Made by a program: the position numbers and the translations under genes. Positions 42,028 to 61,405 of a DNA stretch of 64,000 bases are shown here, one piece after another. Source of the stretch: a virus (lineage: Duplodnaviria; Caudoviricetes). Position 1 is the first letter of the stretch. Each line of letters starts with the position of its first letter. The stretch spans positions 1 to 64,000 of the IMG/VR virus record IMGVR_UViG_3300025608_000017. One strand, written 5' to 3'. The notes beneath the pieces are model-generated. The model made no database searches. It was not told the DNA's origin and worked only from the letters and a program-made list of their open reading frames with translations.

Positions 42028-42786
42028 TTATACAGCAATTGTGCCGAGATCAAGTGTTGTAGTATTAGGTGTAAGTATAGACCCGCCGTCTACATCAGTA
42101 TTAACTATTAAATATTCTAATATATTAGACACAGTAGGAAACATTTGACCAAAGTCTGCCACGTTGTCTCCGAGAATGTTACGTATATCAATGTTGTGGA
42201 CCAGGCCTGTCACGTTTCCTACAACATTACCTGTTACGTTTCCTACAACATTACCTGTTACGTTCCCTGTTAAAGGACCATTAATTCCGGAACTAGTAAT
42301 AGTGCCTACATTTAATAGATTATTTGCCTGTGCATCAAGATCACCACTTAATTGAGGAGATAAATCTGATACCAAATCGGTAATACCTGTATACTCAACA
42401 GTAAGCACACCGTCTACAATCTCTGTGCTAATGTCTGCTCCACCAGTTATAGTTAATGCTGCACTATCCTCTAATACAACATCACCTGTGTCAGCAGTAA
42501 TAGTCAAATCACTTACACCACGGTCTGCGGCTATCACAATCTTATTATCATCAGCAGTCAATGTTACATTTGAACCAGCACTAATTTTTTTAAACTCTAA
42601 GTCATATGAACTTCTACGGAAGAATAAGCCTTCTCCAGTGTCTCCTAAGTTACTAGCAGACGTTTGTTCATCATCACGTAAGTCTAACTCTTCAAAGTTT
42701 GAATTAATTTTGATCATTGCTTCACGAAGATCATCACCTGTTCCATCGTTTGCAACATTGCCTATATTAATTAATTGTACTGCCAT
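42028..42786 (-). CDS. baseplate/tail-fibre-associated trimeric protein (gp9/gp10-like N-terminus)
   Basis: INIGNVANDGTGDDLREAMIKINSNF; LSPQLSGDLD; GNVT/GNVV repeats. Confidence 0.65.
   Translation of the reverse strand: MAVQLINIGNVANDGTGDDLREAMIKINSNFEELDLRDDEQTSASNLGDTGEGLFFRRSSYDLEFKKISAGSNVTLTADDNKIVIAADRGVSDLTITADTGDVVLEDSAALTITGGADISTEIVDGVLTVEYTGITDLVSDLSPQLSGDLDAQANNLLNVGTITSSGINGPLTGNVTGNVVGNVTGNVVGNVTGLVHNIDIRNILGDNVADFGQMFPTVSNILEYLIVNTDVDGGSILTPNTTTLDLGTIAV
42205..42270. repeat. 24-nt coding tandem repeat encoding GNVTGNVV
   Basis: cctgttacgtttcctacaacatta, about 2.5 copies. Confidence 0.8.
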
Positions 42787-42787
42787 T

Positions 42788-44338
42788 TTATCTTCCTAAT
42801 TTCATTTGAACATTACTATTGAACTTGTTAAATGCAAATCTATTTTCGCCACCTAACAAACTACGTGTGTCAGTATAAGCAACTGCGCTTGCAGTGTCGT
42901 ATAGTTGTACAGTTTTAGCAGTAGAGTTAATAAACGACAACCCTTGTGCAGGCGTTGCATTGGGATTTAATTGAAGCCACAATGCTAGTAATCCTGCAAC
43001 TTGTGGACTTGCCATACTTGTGCCGCCTATGTTATTAATTAAGAATGTAGCATCTGCTGGATAAGGGTTGTCAACTAAGGTAGCACCAAATCTATTAGTT
43101 GTACTCATTGCACTCATAATATCTGTGCCTGGAGCATACACACTTACACCTGGACCGCACTCTGAACTAGCTGATTTTTGTTCTAATCCTCCTGTGTGTT
43201 CTGCACTATCAATGTTGCCTACTATATGTGCTTCGTCGTCATAAGGACTAGAACCTCTTTGATAAGATACTGAGCCAGTATTTGCTGCCATAAAGTTATC
43301 ATAGTCATCGCCGCCTGCAACATCAATCTTATGACTCCTGTTTCCTGCTGCAACACACACATGTATTCCGGCATCAATCATTAATTGCACATCAGCATCA
43401 ACTGATGCTAGCCTTAAATTTGTTGCAAATCTGCCATTGCTTGTAGTTGGTGGCAATCCAAATGCCCAACGTTTTGCTGTGGTATCAATATCTGTACCTG
43501 TTTTTAAATCGCCTCTGTATGTAAGGTTAGTAACAGTATCATAACGTCTTAAATAACCCCAACTGTGATTAACAACTGTTGGTCTTTTATAACCTGTTGC
43601 AGGATCTACTGCTTTAGCATTGTGCCACGCTATAATAACGTCAGCCATAGCAGTAACAGTGATACCGCTATTTGGATCTGTTGGGCCTTCTAAGCCAGCT
43701 AATTTTATACTATAAATTTTAGCGTTTTTGGCCCAGCCATATGTTTTGCCTGCCAGTGTGCCAGCAACGTGTGTGCCGTGTCCGTCATAGTCTGTGTAAT
43801 GTTCTGGCGGCATTGTTCCAGAAACACCACTTACATCAAACCAGTCAATTTCTTGTACTCTGCTTACTCCATCAGCATCTTGAAATTCTGGATGATCAGC
43901 TTGTATGCCGCTATCTACAATAACAACATCAACACCTGTGCCGTCTAGTGTGTAATTATATCCGCCTGTAACGTTGACACCAGTATAGGGATTAGTAGCT
44001 TCGTTCATTCTACGCATGCCCCAATTTAAAAACTCGCCGCGGTCCAGTGTGGTTTTTGTAAACAGACCAGTTTGCTCGGCTCTAACTCCGATACCTGTAT
44101 CTGGATCTAAATCGGGCAGCAAATCAACACCATAAACTCTTGAATCATTTTTCAGTGCTTCTGCTTCGTCGTCTGTTAAATTATAATGTGTGTTACGAGT
44201 ATTAGTAGCACGTTGATCTGCAACGTTAACAGTGCGTCCAGGTATTGCTCCAGCTCCTGTAGTTGCAATCATTTCTTGATTAAATGCTACGTGATCTACA
44301 CCTCTGTTTAAACTTACAATATATTCTTTTTCACTCAT
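42788..44338 (-). CDS. subtilisin-family (S8) serine protease
   Basis: Catalytic triad VDSG / HGTHVAG / GTSMASPQVAG; oxyanion Asn in AAGN; N-terminal prodomain. Confidence 0.92.
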   Translation of the reverse strand: MSEKEYIVSLNRGVDHVAFNQEMIATTGAGAIPGRTVNVADQRATNTRNTHYNLTDDEAEALKNDSRVYGVDLLPDLDPDTGIGVRAEQTGLFTKTTLDRGEFLNWGMRRMNEATNPYTGVNVTGGYNYTLDGTGVDVVIVDSGIQADHPEFQDADGVSRVQEIDWFDVSGVSGTMPPEHYTDYDGHGTHVAGTLAGKTYGWAKNAKIYSIKLAGLEGPTDPNSGITVTAMADVIIAWHNAKAVDPATGYKRPTVVNHSWGYLRRYDTVTNLTYRGDLKTGTDIDTTAKRWAFGLPPTTSNGRFATNLRLASVDADVQLMIDAGIHVCVAAGNRSHKIDVAGGDDYDNFMAANTGSVSYQRGSSPYDDEAHIVGNIDSAEHTGGLEQKSASSECGPGVSVYAPGTDIMSAMSTTNRFGATLVDNPYPADATFLINNIGGTSMASPQVAGLLALWLQLNPNATPAQGLSFINSTAKTVQLYDTASAVAYTDTRSLLGGENRFAFNKFNSNVQMKLGR

Positions 44339-47705: not shown

Positions 47706-50700
47706 TAGTGTTTACCTACTACAACTTCAACTGTGCCTTTGTCACCGTCAAGTTTGTCTTCTAGTGCTTTACCAATTACACTGCCAACAGTTGGTGTATT
47801 GTTAACAATAGCATAACCTGGAACATTACTTGCTACAAGCATATCGCCTTTTGCAACTTTGCCAATTACATTACATGGTACACGCCCTTGTAGTGCTATT
47901 GCAACAACGTTGTCGCCTTCACAATGCGAGTTCATTAGGTGTGCTGGGTTAGTCGATACAACGCCTGCTACACGATGTGTACCGTGTGTTGTACTTTGTG
48001 TAACTTCAGCTGCGCCGCCAAACTCAATAACTGTGCCAGGAGTATACTCTGCATCAGCCAAGTAATTCTCTGCCAAGTCAGCGTAGTATGATTCAGTTGC
48101 AGTACCACGGAACAATGTTGCATAAACATCTTTGTACTTTTTAGTTGCACTACCAATGTCATATGTATTATCAGTATCAGGCACTATGCCTGTTGAGCTA
48201 AAGATAGCAGGTACAACACTTGATGCACTACCTGTGTCAGCAGTAACAATGCCTACTTGTCCAGCAGTAGTTTTACCAGTGTTAGCGCCAATTGCAATAG
48301 CTGTACTTGCAGCACCTTTTTCACCTGGTGCTTCAATAAAGCTTGAATAGATCCAGTCAACTCCAAGTACTTTCTCACCTGTAAAGTTTGAAGTACCTTG
48401 CAAAATACTTTCGCTAATACCAGTGCCGCCGATGCCTACACTGCCTTTTACCAACATATCTGGGTATGTAGGTGAGCCGCCGCCAGTGCCGCCCACTGCT
48501 GTAAATATCAAACCTTGTGATGGTGTTTTTACTTGTAATGTTAAACTATCTAAACTTAACACTTCGTAGCTACTATCACCGCCAAGTATTAAAGAGTTGA
48601 CCTGTATGGTACCTTCTTGATCTGTCTTTACAATACTATTGCCTTCTCCAGTAACACTTATGTTACTAATGCCATATGTGCCGTCACCTGTTTTGACCAG
48701 TGCTTCGCCTGCATCGCTGGCTGCTAATATTTCAGCAGTAAAGTCAGCATCTAATAATCCAGTGCCTTCATCTACAATTGTACTAAACGGTATTTCACTT
48801 ACTACTCCTGAGCCATCTGCACTTCTGCCTAAAACAGTATCAGTTGCAATATTTTCCAAGTCTATTAAACTAACACTGCCTGATTTAACAGTTACCCAAC
48901 CGTCTGTAACTTCAAACTTAGCATCATCAAAGCTTGCACTACCTAAGTCACTTTGACTAATGCCCGTAGCATCTACTCGTGTAGTTGCAGCATTTAAGTT
49001 TAGTTTACTTTGTGCAATTTGTGCTGTTCCTGATACATCAGCATTAACAACTGAACCTGTTGCAACAGACATGTTGATTTCAACTTGTCTACCATCTCCT
49101 GCTGTTCTAGTGGTGGTAATAACAACATCACTAGACTCTGCTGCAACACCATTTGCCCATTCATCAACTGGACCATCGAGAACATTGCCTTGCTTTCCGC
49201 CTGGTGCTGTGAGTACATCTGCTGCGGGGCCATCTGCAGGCTTGCCGTCACTGAATACTCCTGTTAAAGGTTCATATGTTATTTCAACAATATTCCCTTC
49301 AATTCCAACTAATCCATCTTTATAATCAACAACAGTGCCTGTTGCACCTGATATAGAACCAGTAATTACATCAGATACTGCAAACCCGCCGCCTAAAATA
49401 CTTCCGGCTTCTAAAATAAGTTTCTTATTTCCTGTTGAAACCAGCAATTGGTTAGCTGCAATATTATTATACTCAACACTACGCAAGTCTTTGATTTCAT
49501 CATTGCCTCCACGGCCTTCGTCAACATAAGATTTAGTTGCAGCATCTGCATCATTAACAGGAGTACCTAAGTTAGTAATAGTATTGCCTGCTGCGTTTAA
49601 GTCGTCTGTCATTGGTACAGCACCGTTAGGAGCAAGCACACCTGGCCCAAGTTTGTTAGCAACAGGAGCACCAGTTACATCGTAACCCAAACGTCTGTTA
49701 ACATAACCACGTACAGCACTTTCTGTTGGAACTGTATCCGAAGCGTTATCTACCATTGCTGTGTCTGTTGAGAACTCAGTAATAACAACACCACGTTTAA
49801 AGCCTAGTCCGTCTACATCACTAAGTGCAAGACTTGCACTAAATGTAACTGTACCAGTACCTTGGTCCACACTAAAGAATCTACCAACTCTAAAGATACC
49901 GTTTTGGTCTGTACTCACATAGAACACACGACCTTTGCCTTTTTCAATAACTTCGTTAGATTCTTTCTTTTCACCCGGTTCGCCAAAAATAACGTTCGGA
50001 TAGTTACTAGTATTAAATCCTCCTGTACCAATGTCTAAGAAATCGTGTCCTGTAGCACGACACGTACTAATGTTAACAGTAACACTACCAGTAGCGCCTG
50101 CTTTCAATCCTGCACGTAGAGTAACTAGTTCACTGCCTAATACAGTTGTACTTGCAATACCAGTTGCATCAGTTTGGTTAATAGTATCATAATCAACCAA
50201 ATCAACAATTGCATATATGTTATCTTCACCTGGCTCTTCGACTACATCTCCAGCACCAACTCCACGGTAGTTAAACACATAATGTTTCTTGCCGCCCCAA
50301 GTAATAATTGGAGAGTCTGTTGCTAAACTATCAGCAGTCCATCCAGCTGGTCTATTTCCTGTTGGAGTTCTAGCATTATTATTGAGTCTGAATATTTCGT
50401 TTTCGTCTGCTAGTTTAACAGCAAGCACAACATCGCCAACTGTATTACCTTTGGTAGTACCTGTGCCTGCCAGTGCAGTTTCCTGTGCTTTAGCAGGATC
50501 AATACTTAATCTAATAAAATCGTATGTACTATCAAGTCCAGCTTGTGAAGTGTTTTCAGGCAGATCGTTGCCGAGACTATCACTTGTTAAGAAACTGATT
50601 GATCTATAAACAAAGTCTGGATTTTCATCAAAGGTTAGTGCTGTACTTGGACGAATTGTTAATACATCGGGACGAGCCAAATCACTAATAATATGTGTTT

Positions 50701-53700
50701 GATTTCTGTAGTAAACAATACTGGTGTTAAATGGTACAATTTCTAGTAGACCGTTTGCACTAAATTGTGTGTCACTTGTACTAAAGTTTAGCTTATACAC
50801 TTTACCGCTATACATCGGTGTTGAACCTTCAACAGCAATAGTACCTGCGGCGCTTACTTCAGTAATTGCACCATCACCGTCAACATCATCAACTGTAACT
50901 GTACAATCGTTTGCTGGTGTCGCACCACCTAATTTATCACCTGTTACAACAAATGTATCGCCTACTGTATAGTTAACACCGTCATTTGCCCCAGCAAATT
51001 CTACACTATATCCTGCATCTATCGTTTTATACAAATTAAACACAAATCCAGTTGCAGCTGGATCTGTCTTAGTTGCAGTATAATCAGTTGTTTCTGCAAG
51101 TAAAGGATATTCCCCAATAATGTGAGTTACAAGTTCTGCGTTTGCAACTTCGTAACGTGCAAATGCTGGACGAGCAGGGTGATAAATGTTAACTTCTGAT
51201 CTGTTGCTCGGTACATCTTTCATATCATATACGTATACTGCCAGAGATTCTTTAGGATTATCATATCCATTAGCATCAACACTAACAGGAACACTATTTG
51301 CACCAAGTGCTCCACTAACACTACCAGTTATTTCATTAGTTGTATCAAATGCTCCTGTGATGCTTGTTAAATAAACTACATTACTGCCGCCTGTTGTACT
51401 TGTAGCAACAGCAACTTCACCAGTTGCTCCACTAAGTGCTTGTGTTAATGTTTCTCCTGCTTGTAGTACCAATGGTCCTGTTGTAAACAAGATTGCATCA
51501 ACATCAAATGCTTTAGCAGGTTGCGTCATATCTTCATACAGTGCAATCGAGTCTGGAATTTCGTTTGGATCTGATCCTTCTGCAACTAGGCCAAATTCGC
51601 CATAACAACTCGAACCTGTTAGTGATCTAATTTCAGCACCATTTTTTGAATAGTAACTAGCGTGACAGTAGTATGTGAACATACTAACCATTTCTGATAG
51701 AGCGCCGTTTGCAGCAACTAGACCGTAGCCTAAATCGTTAACCTGTGTAAAGTCGTTACCTAAGATACTTCTGTTACCAGCTGTTTGTAGTGTGATTGGC
51801 AATGGTGAGTCTATGCTCTGTAGAACACGATTAATAATTAATGCTCTATTAGAAATAACATCATTTGCTGCATCTGTTAGCTCTGCACTCACTGCAAGTG
51901 TTGTTAGATCTGGATTAACAACATCTGGCAAGCTATTCAAATTACCTGCTGTAACAACATTTTCAATAATTTGCAATAGTGCATCTAGTGCATTACCTTC
52001 TGTTGCTGTTGCTGCCGCTCCTGATGTATCTTGTACTTCTACGTTTCCAATTTGAGGAGTTGTAGTAGCGACACCGGTTGCATCTGTAATAACTGCTGCA
52101 ACTACTGTTGCTAGGTGATCATATGCTGCTGCTGTAGCAAGTCTCTGTGCTTCTGGTAACTGGGCTGCTGCACCATCTAAGTATGCCATAGCGTTAGTTA
52201 CTGTACCGCTGTTACCACCATAAAGAATATCATACGTTAACGCATCGACAATGTATCTTACATCTCTAGCACATTTAGTTTGATTGTATCCTGCTGGAGG
52301 AGTATTATTGTTTACAAATGCAACAACTTCAGCTGCTAAAAATGCTCTGTTGTTCTGTAGTCTTGTAGCAGCGTCATCTGCATCGGTTGTTGGAAGTGCC
52401 GCAGGAGAAGGGAAAGAAAGTGCATCTGCTACACCATCACCTGGCTCACTTACACTCTGTGTACCGTTATTGATAATATCAATAACTTCATCAAAGCCTG
52501 CATTTGATCTTGCTAATGCTGTTGCACTATCTGCTATTTCTGTAAGTGCTGCTACTTCAGTTTTACCTTTTGTAATGGCTTGTACAGTTTGTGTCTGTTG
52601 ATTATTTTGTACATACGAGCCTGTTGCTCTTTGATAAGCAAGTCCGTTGTACACACTATTATAGTTTGTGCCAAGTGCAACATCAAATGTAATCCCGTCT
52701 AAAATGTATCCAGTATCTCTAGCACACTTTACACTATCAAATTCAAAAGTACCAACTGAGTCTAAATCAACTCCGGTTGCTAATGTACTCGTAATACCGG
52801 TAAATCCTGTACCATTGTTTGAACTTGGGTCAAGAATTAGCTCTGCTGTTCCAGCATTTTTATCATAATTTGTTACAGCATTAACTTGAAAACGTCTACC
52901 GTCAATGTAGAAGGCACTTGGTGTTTCTGGACGTCTTACAAATAATCCCTGTGGCTCTGTCGGCGAGCCTAAACTTTGGATACTTAATCTAAATGCACTG
53001 CCGTCGACTTTTTCTGTAACTTGTACTGCTGAGTTACCAACAAACGCATCAACAAACAATCCTCCTCTAAACGCTTGCTTGTTAAGTGACTGTGAGAAAC
53101 TTGAACCAGTTTGGATGTATGGAGATTTAGTTAGTACCTGACCTTCAGGATCAAGTACACACATAAATCCGCCATGTCCTTGTACTGTAATATTACGCAC
53201 CATTGTTGCATCATTCATTAAGAACACATCCATGTCAATGTTATTCAATGGCGGATTATAATCTTCATTAAATGCAAATTTAACTGTGTCGATTAAGTTT
53301 TGTAGTACAACATCTGGTCCATCAATCACTCTCCAGAATTCTGCAATAGTTGCTGCATCAAATGCCGAGCCACTGATATGTTCTTTAGTAGGAGTATAAT
53401 ATGTAGTTACACCTAGTCCAGTTGTAAACTTAATTACATTGCCCAGTCTATAAGTTTCGCCACTTTCCCATGAATCAGGCTCGCCTGATCCGTTGAACAA
53501 GTCTGCTGCGTATAGTCTATTACTAGCATCGCCGCCTGCCTGATTATAAAGTGTAGTTGGATTTTCACCTAAGATCAACTTGCTTGCTATTGTATAGATA
53601 TGTTGAATGCCTGCAACAGTTTCATCTTCTGTACCTGCTTCAACTGCACCTGCATAGTATTCACCTTGTGCTTCTAGTGCAAACTCATTGCCGCCGTTGC

Positions 53701-56446
53701 GGAAGTCTTTTACTAGTGCATCGACAATTAGTCCAACGTCTCTAAAACATTTTGCTCTACTGTAAGAACCAACCAGTGCAGGGTATGTTGTTTCAATATA
53801 GTTAACAACTTGTTCTTGTATAAACTCTTTGTTGTCAATAAGTGTAAGGGCGTTTGTTTCCCACTTGCCTACATTTTCATAACCAGCACCTGTATTTTTA
53901 AGATAAGCAGGATGACTCAAGTAATGATACCCGAAGTACCCGTCAACTTTATTAGTTAGTGGATTTACATATTCGATACCATTAGGAACTCGGGCAATTA
54001 CAAATGTAATGCTCGACGCACCGCCAGCGCCTAGTTGATCGTCTAAAACAGTTATTCGTTCACCATTTTGCCAGTCTTTGCCTGAATTGGTTACAGTAAT
54101 ATCTGTTATTGTGCCTCCTGCACCAACAGTAATATCAAATTCTGCGTCTTTGCCCAACTTATCAGTAGTCCACGTACTTACACTATACGTTCCTGGAGTT
54201 CTTGCTGCATTTGTCTGCGGATCAAATGATACAGATTCGATATTTGATGTACCTAGTATAAGATTATCAAACTCTGCATCACGATAGAAGAACGTGTTTG
54301 CCCAACGTGATTGCGACACACGTTTCTTTGGACGGATAATACAACGTCTAAATTCGTCACCCTTAACACTTACGTTTGCAGGAATACGGATTGGATAGTC
54401 TTCTTCGTAAATACCACTTTCAATTCTTATTGAAATCTGTGTTTCACGCACATAGTTACCATACTCTAATGGTTCACCTGCTACAAATTCAACAGGCTCT
54501 AATAACTGTACTTCAATTTCATCTGTTCCAACAATACTAACTGCTCTTGGACCTGCTTCGTATTTATAGTCAATAATTCTACCAACTGCGCCTGAGTTTT
54601 TACCACGTACAACTTTACCAGGAATAATATCAGTGTTTTCTGGATTTGCTTGATTGATAAATCCAAGGCCACCATTGTTAATATTAATTTTATAAGTTGT
54701 TTGTCCATCAACAATTTGTGGAGCATCTAACACACCATTTTCGATAACGTCTAGTATGATATCCATTTTTTCGCCAATGGCTTCGTCGGCACTTGTATCC
54801 GGTAGTGCTAGATTAGTTACTTGTGATACTCGTGATTGATATGTTGTAGGCACAGGTGTATTTGTTAAAATATATTGTGTAACAATCGTTTTAGCATACT
54901 CAATACCTGCAATAGTTTCTACACGCTGTGAGCCAATTGCTTTTTGCGCACTAACATTCGAATAGTAACGGATACCTGCCCAACGTGATAGATAGTTAGC
55001 GTTGTTGCCTAGTAGTGCATCTAAACTAACACTATCTAAAATAAATTCAACATCGCGTTGACAAATTTCTACGTCATACGATCCTGCAAAGCTAGGAAAT
55101 GTTGCGTCAATATATCCTGTAACTTCTTTAGCAATAAACTCTTTGTTTGCTACAATGATTGCTCTTGCATTAGCACGGTCTGCAATAGGTGATGAAATGC
55201 CAACAGTATTAGTTAGTGCAGTATTGCCTCCTGTTGCATAAGTCATTGTTTGCATATAAGGACCTGGCTCAGGCGGCGCAGCAATAATTATTTCTTCTGC
55301 TTTCCGTGCTGCTGCATTAATTGTGCGATACGCATATGCTGGTGCACGACCTTCTTTACCATCTGGCGTAAATGTTTGTTGATCTGAACCCGATGTACTT
55401 ACATAAAGATTAACTTGACTCTGTGCTGCTGCATTGTCTACATACAGTTTCGTAGCAGCTTGTAGATCATCAGGACCGTTTGGAAGACCTGTACCTCTTA
55501 GTTCGCCAGGATGGTCAAACAAATTAAGAGCGCCGGTCATATCATCACCCTGACGCCTTACTATACTTTTACGAGGTATAGCAACATTGTCTAGCCAAAA
55601 GCCTCTGAGATTTTCATCATATGCTGCATCAGTAATTGTAAATGTTCCTGAGCCGCCGGACAGCAAAATTCTTCCAGTTGAGTTGATAGCATCATCTTCG
55701 CTATTGTATAAAGCAATATTATCTGTATCGACTATACTAATATATACAGTTCCGCCAGTGGTAACACCAAAAGGATCATCGCCTGTTGAGTTAAATATAA
55801 ATGCAGCGCCGTTGAACGCCGTTGTTAGCCCGTGATCAACAATAGTTAGGTTACCGAGATTAAAACCAGAAGCAGTAAAAATATAGCCAGAGTCGTCAAG
55901 TGGCTCATCACCTAGACGTAGTCCGCCGCCAGCAACTTCTTTTGACTGATAACTTCTGTCAGCAAATGCTTTGTCAATAACAAGGGCACCTGTTGTTAAG
56001 TTTGTTCCGTGTACACTGTTAAATGTATCAATTGCAGCTTGCGTAACACTTACATTAGCAATTGGCTGTGTTGCAGCATCTAGCGGTCCGCCTAAGATTG
56101 GCTCAGGGTCGTTTGATACTTTTGATACAAGTTGTTTAATAATTACTTTGCCGTCAACTGTAAAATCAAAGCCAATAGTGTCTGGTGTGCCGTCTAGGCT
56201 ATTATCTGAAGCAAGTTCAAGTAAATCAATGCCACTGCCGTCTGACTTGACCAAAGGAACTTTGTTTTCGTTACCTTCATATGTGTTAGGAGTGTCATTG
56301 AGATCAGTGAATGATATCTGTCCGCCAATACCAAATACAGCATATAGTTCTTGAAAGTTTTCGTTTACTTTACGAAACGACTCGCGAATACTATCGCCTG
56401 TGCCGTCATTACCTTCAATGCCGATATCAATTTGTTGCTTTGCCAT
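47705..56446 (-). CDS. giant tail/baseplate structural protein (2913 aa) with C-terminal autocleaving chaperone-like domain
   Basis: gp9/10-like N-terminus; DAATKxYVD fibre motifs; C-terminal YADLAENY...GVVSTNP...ALQGRVPC..IGKALE (peptidase G2/IMC-like). Confidence 0.8.
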   Translation of the reverse strand: MAKQQIDIGIEGNDGTGDSIRESFRKVNENFQELYAVFGIGGQISFTDLNDTPNTYEGNENKVPLVKSDGSGIDLLELASDNSLDGTPDTIGFDFTVDGKVIIKQLVSKVSNDPEPILGGPLDAATQPIANVSVTQAAIDTFNSVHGTNLTTGALVIDKAFADRSYQSKEVAGGGLRLGDEPLDDSGYIFTASGFNLGNLTIVDHGLTTAFNGAAFIFNSTGDDPFGVTTGGTVYISIVDTDNIALYNSEDDAINSTGRILLSGGSGTFTITDAAYDENLRGFWLDNVAIPRKSIVRRQGDDMTGALNLFDHPGELRGTGLPNGPDDLQAATKLYVDNAAAQSQVNLYVSTSGSDQQTFTPDGKEGRAPAYAYRTINAAARKAEEIIIAAPPEPGPYMQTMTYATGGNTALTNTVGISSPIADRANARAIIVANKEFIAKEVTGYIDATFPSFAGSYDVEICQRDVEFILDSVSLDALLGNNANYLSRWAGIRYYSNVSAQKAIGSQRVETIAGIEYAKTIVTQYILTNTPVPTTYQSRVSQVTNLALPDTSADEAIGEKMDIILDVIENGVLDAPQIVDGQTTYKININNGGLGFINQANPENTDIIPGKVVRGKNSGAVGRIIDYKYEAGPRAVSIVGTDEIEVQLLEPVEFVAGEPLEYGNYVRETQISIRIESGIYEEDYPIRIPANVSVKGDEFRRCIIRPKKRVSQSRWANTFFYRDAEFDNLILGTSNIESVSFDPQTNAARTPGTYSVSTWTTDKLGKDAEFDITVGAGGTITDITVTNSGKDWQNGERITVLDDQLGAGGASSITFVIARVPNGIEYVNPLTNKVDGYFGYHYLSHPAYLKNTGAGYENVGKWETNALTLIDNKEFIQEQVVNYIETTYPALVGSYSRAKCFRDVGLIVDALVKDFRNGGNEFALEAQGEYYAGAVEAGTEDETVAGIQHIYTIASKLILGENPTTLYNQAGGDASNRLYAADLFNGSGEPDSWESGETYRLGNVIKFTTGLGVTTYYTPTKEHISGSAFDAATIAEFWRVIDGPDVVLQNLIDTVKFAFNEDYNPPLNNIDMDVFLMNDATMVRNITVQGHGGFMCVLDPEGQVLTKSPYIQTGSSFSQSLNKQAFRGGLFVDAFVGNSAVQVTEKVDGSAFRLSIQSLGSPTEPQGLFVRRPETPSAFYIDGRRFQVNAVTNYDKNAGTAELILDPSSNNGTGFTGITSTLATGVDLDSVGTFEFDSVKCARDTGYILDGITFDVALGTNYNSVYNGLAYQRATGSYVQNNQQTQTVQAITKGKTEVAALTEIADSATALARSNAGFDEVIDIINNGTQSVSEPGDGVADALSFPSPAALPTTDADDAATRLQNNRAFLAAEVVAFVNNNTPPAGYNQTKCARDVRYIVDALTYDILYGGNSGTVTNAMAYLDGAAAQLPEAQRLATAAAYDHLATVVAAVITDATGVATTTPQIGNVEVQDTSGAAATATEGNALDALLQIIENVVTAGNLNSLPDVVNPDLTTLAVSAELTDAANDVISNRALIINRVLQSIDSPLPITLQTAGNRSILGNDFTQVNDLGYGLVAANGALSEMVSMFTYYCHASYYSKNGAEIRSLTGSSCYGEFGLVAEGSDPNEIPDSIALYEDMTQPAKAFDVDAILFTTGPLVLQAGETLTQALSGATGEVAVATSTTGGSNVVYLTSITGAFDTTNEITGSVSGALGANSVPVSVDANGYDNPKESLAVYVYDMKDVPSNRSEVNIYHPARPAFARYEVANAELVTHIIGEYPLLAETTDYTATKTDPAATGFVFNLYKTIDAGYSVEFAGANDGVNYTVGDTFVVTGDKLGGATPANDCTVTVDDVDGDGAITEVSAAGTIAVEGSTPMYSGKVYKLNFSTSDTQFSANGLLEIVPFNTSIVYYRNQTHIISDLARPDVLTIRPSTALTFDENPDFVYRSISFLTSDSLGNDLPENTSQAGLDSTYDFIRLSIDPAKAQETALAGTGTTKGNTVGDVVLAVKLADENEIFRLNNNARTPTGNRPAGWTADSLATDSPIITWGGKKHYVFNYRGVGAGDVVEEPGEDNIYAIVDLVDYDTINQTDATGIASTTVLGSELVTLRAGLKAGATGSVTVNISTCRATGHDFLDIGTGGFNTSNYPNVIFGEPGEKKESNEVIEKGKGRVFYVSTDQNGIFRVGRFFSVDQGTGTVTFSASLALSDVDGLGFKRGVVITEFSTDTAMVDNASDTVPTESAVRGYVNRRLGYDVTGAPVANKLGPGVLAPNGAVPMTDDLNAAGNTITNLGTPVNDADAATKSYVDEGRGGNDEIKDLRSVEYNNIAANQLLVSTGNKKLILEAGSILGGGFAVSDVITGSISGATGTVVDYKDGLVGIEGNIVEITYEPLTGVFSDGKPADGPAADVLTAPGGKQGNVLDGPVDEWANGVAAESSDVVITTTRTAGDGRQVEINMSVATGSVVNADVSGTAQIAQSKLNLNAATTRVDATGISQSDLGSASFDDAKFEVTDGWVTVKSGSVSLIDLENIATDTVLGRSADGSGVVSEIPFSTIVDEGTGLLDADFTAEILAASDAGEALVKTGDGTYGISNISVTGEGNSIVKTDQEGTIQVNSLILGGDSSYEVLSLDSLTLQVKTPSQGLIFTAVGGTGGGSPTYPDMLVKGSVGIGGTGISESILQGTSNFTGEKVLGVDWIYSSFIEAPGEKGAASTAIAIGANTGKTTAGQVGIVTADTGSASSVVPAIFSSTGIVPDTDNTYDIGSATKKYKDVYATLFRGTATESYYADLAENYLADAEYTPGTVIEFGGAAEVTQSTTHGTHRVAGVVSTNPAHLMNSHCEGDNVVAIALQGRVPCNVIGKVAKGDMLVASNVPGYAIVNNTPTVGSVIGKALEDKLDGDKGTVEVVVGKH

Positions 56447-60841: not shown

Positions 60842-61405
60842 CTATCTTGTAGTATTAAAACTGATAACTGTACGGGCATCATTGTTATTTTTGTCAGTGT
60901 AGTGCTCTAGCCAACTAGGGAATATCACCAACAAGTCCTCATAGCAAGGAATACAATGTTGGTACTCGTTAAATGGACTGTCTGTTGAAAAAATATCGTT
61001 CATCCTATATGGCTTCAATGGACTTGAAAAATATAAATTTGACGAACCTTCTGGTGCATTAATATAATACGCTCCACTTAATACACTTCCTTCGTGCCTA
61101 TGCGGCACAACACTGCCTCCATCATTCATTCGATTAAACCAGCTATTTCCGACTTTTAAAGGAGAATAACCGCCAACCGAAGCGTATTGCTTAATATTAT
61201 TAGAAATATCTGTTTTTAATTCAATTAAATCGGGATGATCTAATATTGGAGAGGATGAAAAGCTACTGAGTCCGTTATCTAATAAGTCGTGATCTGTTAA
61301 CTCTGTATTTTTTATTATTTCCAAAGCTCTTGTCTTACAAGAATGATTGCTCATATCTACTAACATTACTGCTGTTGGGAATATGCTTATTATTTTGTTA
61401 TCCAT
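60842..61405 (-). CDS. putative 2OG-Fe(II) oxygenase (TIGR02466-like)
   Basis: PHRHEGSVLSGAYY, FPSWLEH, RTVISFN. Confidence 0.8.
   Translation of the reverse strand: MDNKIISIFPTAVMLVDMSNHSCKTRALEIIKNTELTDHDLLDNGLSSFSSSPILDHPDLIELKTDISNNIKQYASVGGYSPLKVGNSWFNRMNDGGSVVPHRHEGSVLSGAYYINAPEGSSNLYFSSPLKPYRMNDIFSTDSPFNEYQHCIPCYEDLLVIFPSWLEHYTDKNNNDARTVISFNTTR

Follow-up and report, generated by a model that had tools for sequence, protein, structure and literature searches.

The giant fibre gene and the predicted fold of its repeats

The stretch of DNA analysed here (the window) comprises 64,000 nucleotides, positions 1 to 64,000 of the IMG/VR virus record IMGVR_UViG_3300025608_000017. Its minus strand carries a gene for a giant tail-fibre or baseplate-fibre protein of 2913 amino acids (aa). 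Four globin domains with the motif C-x-R-D, named r1 to r4, are built into this fibre, which is probably attached to the baseplate and belongs to an uncultured marine jumbo myovirus (Table 1).

A sequence-only reading of the window had described four C-x-R-D cysteines in related repeats of a virion (tail) protein otherwise poor in Cys, and had taken the repeats for globin-fold, phycobiliprotein-like domains. The four codons were recovered at exactly the same coordinates (C462, 55061-55063; C900, 53747-53749; C1241, 52724-52726; C1392, 52271-52273), and the peptide strings agree with the translation. The whole protein holds 12 Cys (0.41%), four of which stand in C-x-R-D; with the composition of the protein as background, at least four of the 12 would be followed by x-R-D with a binomial probability of 1.3e-8. 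In self-BLAST, four repeats of about 150 aa (residues 420-572, 866-976, 1236-1338 and 1352-1498) align pairwise with E-values from 1e-7 to 1e-16 and 27-34% identity. A place in the virion is suggested by an N-terminus resembling T4 gp9/gp10, where PF07880 reaches 24.9 bits and so falls just short of its cut-off of 25, and by matches to PHROG tail-fibre and baseplate-wedge families with E-values from 6e-54 to 2e-5. The neighbours of the gene are baseplate and fibre genes, and one homologue stands after the genes for portal, prohead protease and gp23.

Two copies, r4 and r1, mutually 31% identical, were modelled with AlphaFold2 without templates. The r4 model is all-helical, with a predicted local distance difference test score (pLDDT) of 92.9 and a predicted template-modelling score (pTM) of 0.87; the pLDDT of the r1 model is 93.3. 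In Foldseek searches of the PDB, the top 50 matches of r4 were all phycobiliproteins (probability 1.00, TMq 0.55-0.63, E 0.015-0.09), and phycobiliproteins alone were found among the top matches of r1 (TMq 0.61-0.69). The program VIA-align, which does not use Foldseek, was run with the r4 model against 48,161 representative chains. Eight phycobiliprotein chains ranked first, with Z 11.8-14.1 and a root-mean-square deviation (rmsd) of 2.1-3.0 over 113-136 residues; the best was allophycocyanin (Z 14.1, rmsd 2.2 over 117 residues), with phycoerythrin and the ApcE bilin domain both at 13.4, and VIA-align's own caveat is that helical models can attain a Z of about 14 by chance. Globin-coupled sensors (Z 10.9), photocobilins (10), RsbR (8.5) and haemoglobins (6-8) came next. 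The ranking is coherent and the two programs concur on phycobiliproteins, so that the fold supposed from the sequence is supported by both models, including by the Foldseek check that had been proposed for it.

From these models, the four repeats are very probably phycobiliprotein-type globin domains with helices A/B-E-F-G-H, and their C-x-R-D sits on the equivalent of phycobiliprotein helix E. Residues 1-147 of the r4 model cover residues 32/34-159/184 of the phycobiliprotein chains. Neither structural nor hidden Markov model (HMM) alignments gave a counterpart of chain residues 1-31, the N-terminal X-Y hairpin; since r4 residues 1-147 map to chain residues 34-159, the domain is a globin core without this hairpin.

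The relation is fainter in sequence, though consistent. A profile of the four repeats retrieved ten matches among PDB sequences, seven of them phycobiliproteins, all weak (E 0.055-0.9) and with alignments of about 100 residues; in HMM alignments the repeat Cys falls on phycobiliprotein Cys82/84. A deeper profile was built from 86 diverse repeat copies, taken from the window and 80 IMG/VR contigs. In the comparison with the phycobiliprotein family PF00502 that the sequence-only reading had called for, every copy scored below the gathering threshold of 22.2 bits (the best window copy, r3, reached 11.5 bits, E 0.29, over profile positions 75-152), yet PF00502 attracted more copies than any other of the 24,736 Pfam families (12 of 86 with E<=1, the best at 0.0032; the next family attracted three). 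An hhalign comparison with a phycoerythrin-beta alignment scored 25.1 (E 0.0026, 63 columns), and all 30 column-shuffled controls stayed below that score, the highest reaching 20.6.

Table 1. Features of the giant fibre gene in the window
Feature	Position	Strand	Basis
Giant tail-fibre/baseplate-fibre gene, 2913 aa	47705..56446	-	ORF (open reading frame) list and translation; PHROG tail-fibre families phrog_9851, phrog_5342, phrog_4527
T4 gp9/gp10-like baseplate attachment segment, N-terminal, residues 3-40	56327..56440	-	Borderline PF07880; phrog_958 (baseplate wedge)
Globin repeat r1, residues 423-576, Cys462 in CQRD	54719..55180	-	Self-BLAST; AlphaFold2; Foldseek
Globin repeat r2, residues 863-1000, Cys900 in CFRD, diverged last helix	53447..53860	-	Self-BLAST (E 5e-14 to r1); repeat alignment
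Globin repeat r3, residues 1232-1346, Cys1241 in CARD, without first helix pair	52409..52753	-	Self-BLAST; repeat alignment; sub-threshold PF00502 match
Globin repeat r4, residues 1353-1526, Cys1392 in CARD	51869..52390	-	AlphaFold2; Foldseek; VIA-align
Conserved tail-fibre segment, residues 2127-2252	49691..50068	-	phrog_9851 tail fiber protein, E 6e-54
C-terminal tail-fibre tip region, residues 2729-2895	47762..48262	-	phrog_19602, phrog_22593

A PDB sequence search with the C-terminal 314 aa of the fibre gave no match, nor did blastn of the fibre region against cultured phages, and a search of the ESM Atlas gave no usable one. Within the fibre/baseplate operon lies a 516-aa protein with a protease-family match (phrog_3677; window 42788-44338, minus strand), adjoined by a 252-aa protein with a gp9/10-like N-terminus (window 42028-42786). 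A 2-oxoglutarate (2OG)-Fe(II) oxygenase is encoded at window 60842-61405 on the minus strand, upstream of the fibre gene and separated from it by about 4.4 kb. In the cyanophages S-PM2 (L182 4308-4889) and Syn1 (L197 2073-2645), a 2OG-Fe(II) oxygenase (T4-like GC104) stands directly upstream of a globin fibre gene, and the enzyme may be a modifier of the fibre protein.

Conservation and distribution of the domain

When 1.84 billion representative proteins were searched exhaustively with the profile, 1316 contained the domain, with up to 36 copies per protein and in proteins of up to 6382 aa. Over 1482 copies, the C-x-R-D motif retains Cys in 96%, Arg in 96% and Asp in 99%; the unconserved Cys in homologues that the sequence-only reading had named as contrary evidence is thus not what is seen. 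Further invariant residues are D54 (100%) and Y70 (98%). Among the 1420 copies with the Cys, Arg is missing in 26 and Asp in none, and among the 62 without it, Arg is missing in 32 and Asp in 18 (Fisher 7e-33 and 1e-26, respectively); D54 is retained whether or not the Cys is present. The Cys, Arg and Asp of the motif behave as a single unit, their losses coinciding.

The domain is in essence confined to viruses. With 185,579 prokaryote species represented by one genome apiece, a pattern scan met it at four loci only, all in metagenome-assembled genomes. By tblastn it was present in 130 of 50,697 cultured phage records, namely 129 cyanophages and one uncultured marine virus, and its matches in BFVD are annotated exclusively as tail or structural proteins. 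A literature search found no paper pairing a globin or phycobiliprotein with a tail fibre. The metagenomic bin Rhodobacteraceae bacterium Water_Bin34 (L166, L167, L169-L171) contains two contigs of about 50 kb that encode the globin domain, as well as three that carry genes for a ferredoxin-dependent bilin reductase (FDBR); either phage DNA was binned wrongly here, or the bin gives a clue to the phages' host.

Bilin genes in two phage groups and light-dependent adsorption of cyanophages

The source of the window is a marine jumbo myovirus and not a classical T4-like cyanophage, because its DNA polymerase is nearest to those of jumbo phages of Sinorhizobium, Agrobacterium, Vibrio, Yersinia and E. 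coli (42-50% identity) and because its record, at 84 kb, is only 23% complete according to CheckV. The search for bilin reductase and lyase genes suggested earlier found neither heme oxygenase, FDBR nor CpeT in this record, but a reductase was found in a related contig, G002, which is collinear with the window genome at 74-83% nucleotide identity and whose r4 is 95% identical in amino acids. The G002 genes for heme oxygenase, an FDBR and a CN-hydrolase-like protein correspond in location to a point about 10-12 kb past the end of the window's record. The FDBR matches the crystallised PcyX (PDB 5OWG) with an E-value of 1.6e-78; PcyX converts biliverdin to phycoerythrobilin (PMC6755814). In G002, hemO and pcyX lie about 36 kb from the fibre gene and do not form one cluster with it, and the window's record stops short of that region. 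By synteny with G002, the window phage's own genome would carry the bilin genes as well. The G002 cassette (L083 3499-8051) encodes, in this order, a GroEL-like chaperonin, Hsp20, ClpS, heme oxygenase (L083 6010-6567), the CN-hydrolase-like ORF of 265 aa and PcyX (L083 7365-8051).

Relatives of PcyX were found on 266 IMG/VR contigs, of which 50 were searched for the domain. It was present in 21, in an ORF of 2100-3640 aa. Where at least 45 kb of sequence lies downstream of pcyX the figure is 13 of 14 contigs, and among contigs of at least 75 kb it is 10 of 11. The sole long contig with enough downstream DNA and without the globin domain is IMGVR_UViG_3300000101_000007 (G042, L113; 107 kb). The reverse test found an FDBR in one of 33 domain-bearing IMG/VR contigs, which is uninformative because these contigs are 7-36% fragments. 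Neither domain nor FDBR was present in the five nearest cultured jumbo relatives, which infect heterotrophs and whose genomes, at 349-490 kb, are complete or nearly so. CpeT was not found in 40 contigs of the PcyX lineage, and attachment of a bilin there would therefore be autocatalytic or proceed through another lyase.

The domain profile and the Pfam CpeT model were also searched in 17 T4-like cyanomyovirus reference genomes and one podovirus. Domain and CpeT occur together in 12 of the cyanomyoviruses (S-PM2, P-HM1, P-HM2, P-SSM4, Syn9, S-RSM4, P-RSM4, Syn1, Syn19, Syn33, S-SM1 and S-SSM5), the domain without CpeT in two (P-SSM7 and S-ShM2), CpeT without the domain in none, and neither in three (P-SSM2, S-SM2 and S-SSM7). 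In these genomes the lyase CpeT is thus found only alongside the domain (Fisher p 0.015, kinship ignored); the three phages with neither may be related to one another. The phages S-PM2, Syn1 and S-RSM4 represent three genera, and in each of them cpeT shares a strand with the giant globin-bearing 'short tail fiber' gene and precedes it by 0.7-1.5 kb. Canonical CxRD copies are present in these three phages and in P-HM2, whose fibre proteins measure 3300-4500 aa. In the proteins of 6000-7300 aa of Syn9, P-SSM4, P-SSM7 and S-ShM2 (L205-L208), the Cys and the last Asp are kept and the Arg is replaced (CxDD, CxTD, CxLD); such copies are a sub-type of their own, in which the ligand site may be different. 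The RefSeq record of S-PM2 (L182, NC_006820.1 168556-173383) places 16 tRNA features within the coordinates of the giant fibre coding sequence, which looks like a coordinate error in the record and not biology.

Adsorption in the dark has been reported as absent for P-HM1 and P-HM2, reduced for P-SSM2 and present for the podovirus P-SSP7 (Liu et al., PMC6628666), and S-PM2 requires light for adsorption (PMC6628666, where Liu et al. cite Jia et al.). This light dependence was ascribed to unidentified light-sensitive receptors or tail fibres (PMC6628666). We count nine copies of the domain in S-PM2, four each in P-HM1 and P-HM2, and zero in P-SSM2 and P-SSP7, so that presence of the domain matches the published phenotype in five of five phages, about four of them independent.

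Proposed mechanism and alternatives

Phycobiliproteins are the closest structural match of the fibre domain (Z 12-14, TMq up to 0.69) and share with it the globin-type helical fold, the C-x-R-D on the equivalent helix, as in all four window copies, and the pattern K-C-x-R-D-[VI]-G-Y...Y-x-L-L-x-G-G with a Tyr before the Cys. The two differ in that phycobiliproteins are free subunits of about 170 aa whose X-Y hairpin builds the alpha-beta monomer and (alpha-beta)3 discs, whereas the fibre domain lacks the hairpin, occurs as 1-36 copies inside virion fibre proteins of 800-7300 aa and has its own invariant D54, Y70 and N60. In phycobiliproteins and in two bilin biosynthesis-associated globins, BBAG-1 and BBAG-3, the chromophore motif is CXRD, and bilin attachment to BBAGs needs no lyase (Rockwell et al. 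2023, PMC10151467). Compared by description only, BBAGs are likewise phycobiliprotein paralogues outside phycobilisomes. The genomes that encode BBAGs also encode heme oxygenase and FDBR. BBAGs are stand-alone cellular proteins clustered with FDBR, whereas the fibre domains are internal to a 2913-aa protein and, in G002, far from hemO-pcyX. Their lyase-free attachment would explain the missing lyase in the PcyX jumbo lineage.

The auxiliary genes hemO-pcyX, pebS and cpeT (5OWG; PMC11480375) are found in the same phage lineages as the fibre domain, and the target of phage hemO-FDBR in the infected cell has been called 'still enigmatic' (PMC11480375). These genes encode enzymes, whereas the fibre domain, unmentioned in those papers, is a candidate acceptor. 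The phage cpeT gene is likewise not known to have a settled role.

We propose that, during synthesis of the fibre, each domain would bind a bilin by a thioether at the motif Cys, while Arg and Asp would grip its pyrrole nitrogens and a propionate in the manner of phycobiliproteins. For the jumbo lineage the predicted bilin is phycoerythrobilin, which the phage heme oxygenase and PcyX would produce from host heme; it would attach either autocatalytically, in the way known from BBAGs and ApcE, or with the help of a further lyase. In T4-like cyanophages the bilin could come from host or phage, with phage CpeT as the likely lyase. The resulting fibre would be pigmented. More speculatively, the pigment could be a light sensor that restricts adsorption to daytime. 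We give covalent binding of a bilin by the domain an even chance, and a light-sensing role that gates adsorption is doubtful. It is similarly uncertain, and on balance rather unlikely, that the virions of both PcyX jumbo phages and T4-like cyanophages bear a covalent bilin as a photoreceptor and adsorb only in light.

Several observations weigh against these proposals. The Foldseek E-values are merely 0.004-0.09, the Z-scores come with the caveat given above, and PF00502 scores are all below the gathering score; the 86-sequence profile lowered the HMM-to-sequence signal of phycobiliproteins, and homology therefore leans mainly on fold and motif. No bilin genes were found in the window's own record and no CpeT in 40 contigs of the PcyX lineage, two cyanophages (P-SSM7 and S-ShM2) possess the domain without CpeT, and Syn9-type copies are mostly CxDD or CxTD instead of CxRD. 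P-SSM2 has an FDBR without the domain, and phage bilin genes therefore cannot serve solely this purpose. The co-occurrence counts ignore phylogeny and the match with adsorption involves few independent phages. Most phycobiliproteins and BBAGs are no photoswitches.

The main rival explanation holds that the domain is a structural module with no chromophore: a globin of phycobiliprotein origin would have been exapted to give a trimeric fibre rigid beads or spacers, and C-x-R-D would serve folding or inter-chain contacts. We regard it as possible, though not probable. Tandem arrays of up to 36 copies in proteins as long as 6382 aa also suit such a module, as do the absence of a detected lyase in the PcyX lineage, the two phages with the domain and without CpeT, the persistence of degenerate CxDD, CxTD and Cys-less copies, and the lack of the hairpin used for phycobiliprotein assembly. 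A spacer, however, is not expected to retain exactly the three chromophore residues at 96-99% over 1482 copies, nor to lose them jointly while D54 stays, and the domain tracks genes for bilin supply and a lyase in two unrelated phage groups. The genomic evidence favours bilin binding over a structural spacer.

The pocket might instead hold another ligand, such as heme, non-covalent biliverdin, a metal bound through Cys/Asp or a host surface molecule, with a partial likeness to a bilin site. The globin fold accommodates many ligands, matches to sensor globins and photocobilin domains come at Z 10-11, and for the family-specific invariant D54, Y70, N60 and T86 the hhalign alignment shows no fixed equivalent in phycobiliproteins. 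This explanation is nevertheless improbable, given that the proximal/distal His pattern is absent, that the C-x-R-D on helix E is in the register of phycobiliproteins and BBAGs, and that the genomic partners are bilin-specific enzymes. Convergence would make the repeats an unrelated helical domain with a chance K-C-x-R-D-x-G-Y motif, which drew AlphaFold2 to a phycobiliprotein-like solution. It accords with the sequence-level statistics, all of which are sub-threshold, but the modelling was template-free and two copies of 31% identity gave the same fold at pLDDT 93 over 150 residues, against a motif of 25 residues, and both Foldseek and VIA-align rank phycobiliproteins first across the whole domain; we consider it very improbable.

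Although biochemical studies have characterised the phage heme oxygenase, PcyX/PebS and CpeT, their purpose is unsettled. A virion protein with phycobiliprotein-type chromophore sites in the same lineages offers a concrete candidate for both acceptor and sensor. If bilin binding and light sensing were true, this would be the first pigmented, light-sensing virus particle, a large virus-only branch would join the bilin-binding globins, and one mechanism would account for the hemO-pcyX cassette, phage cpeT and the photosynthesis-independent, light-dependent adsorption of cyanophages. Whether virus particles carry pigment and sense light has become a testable matter.

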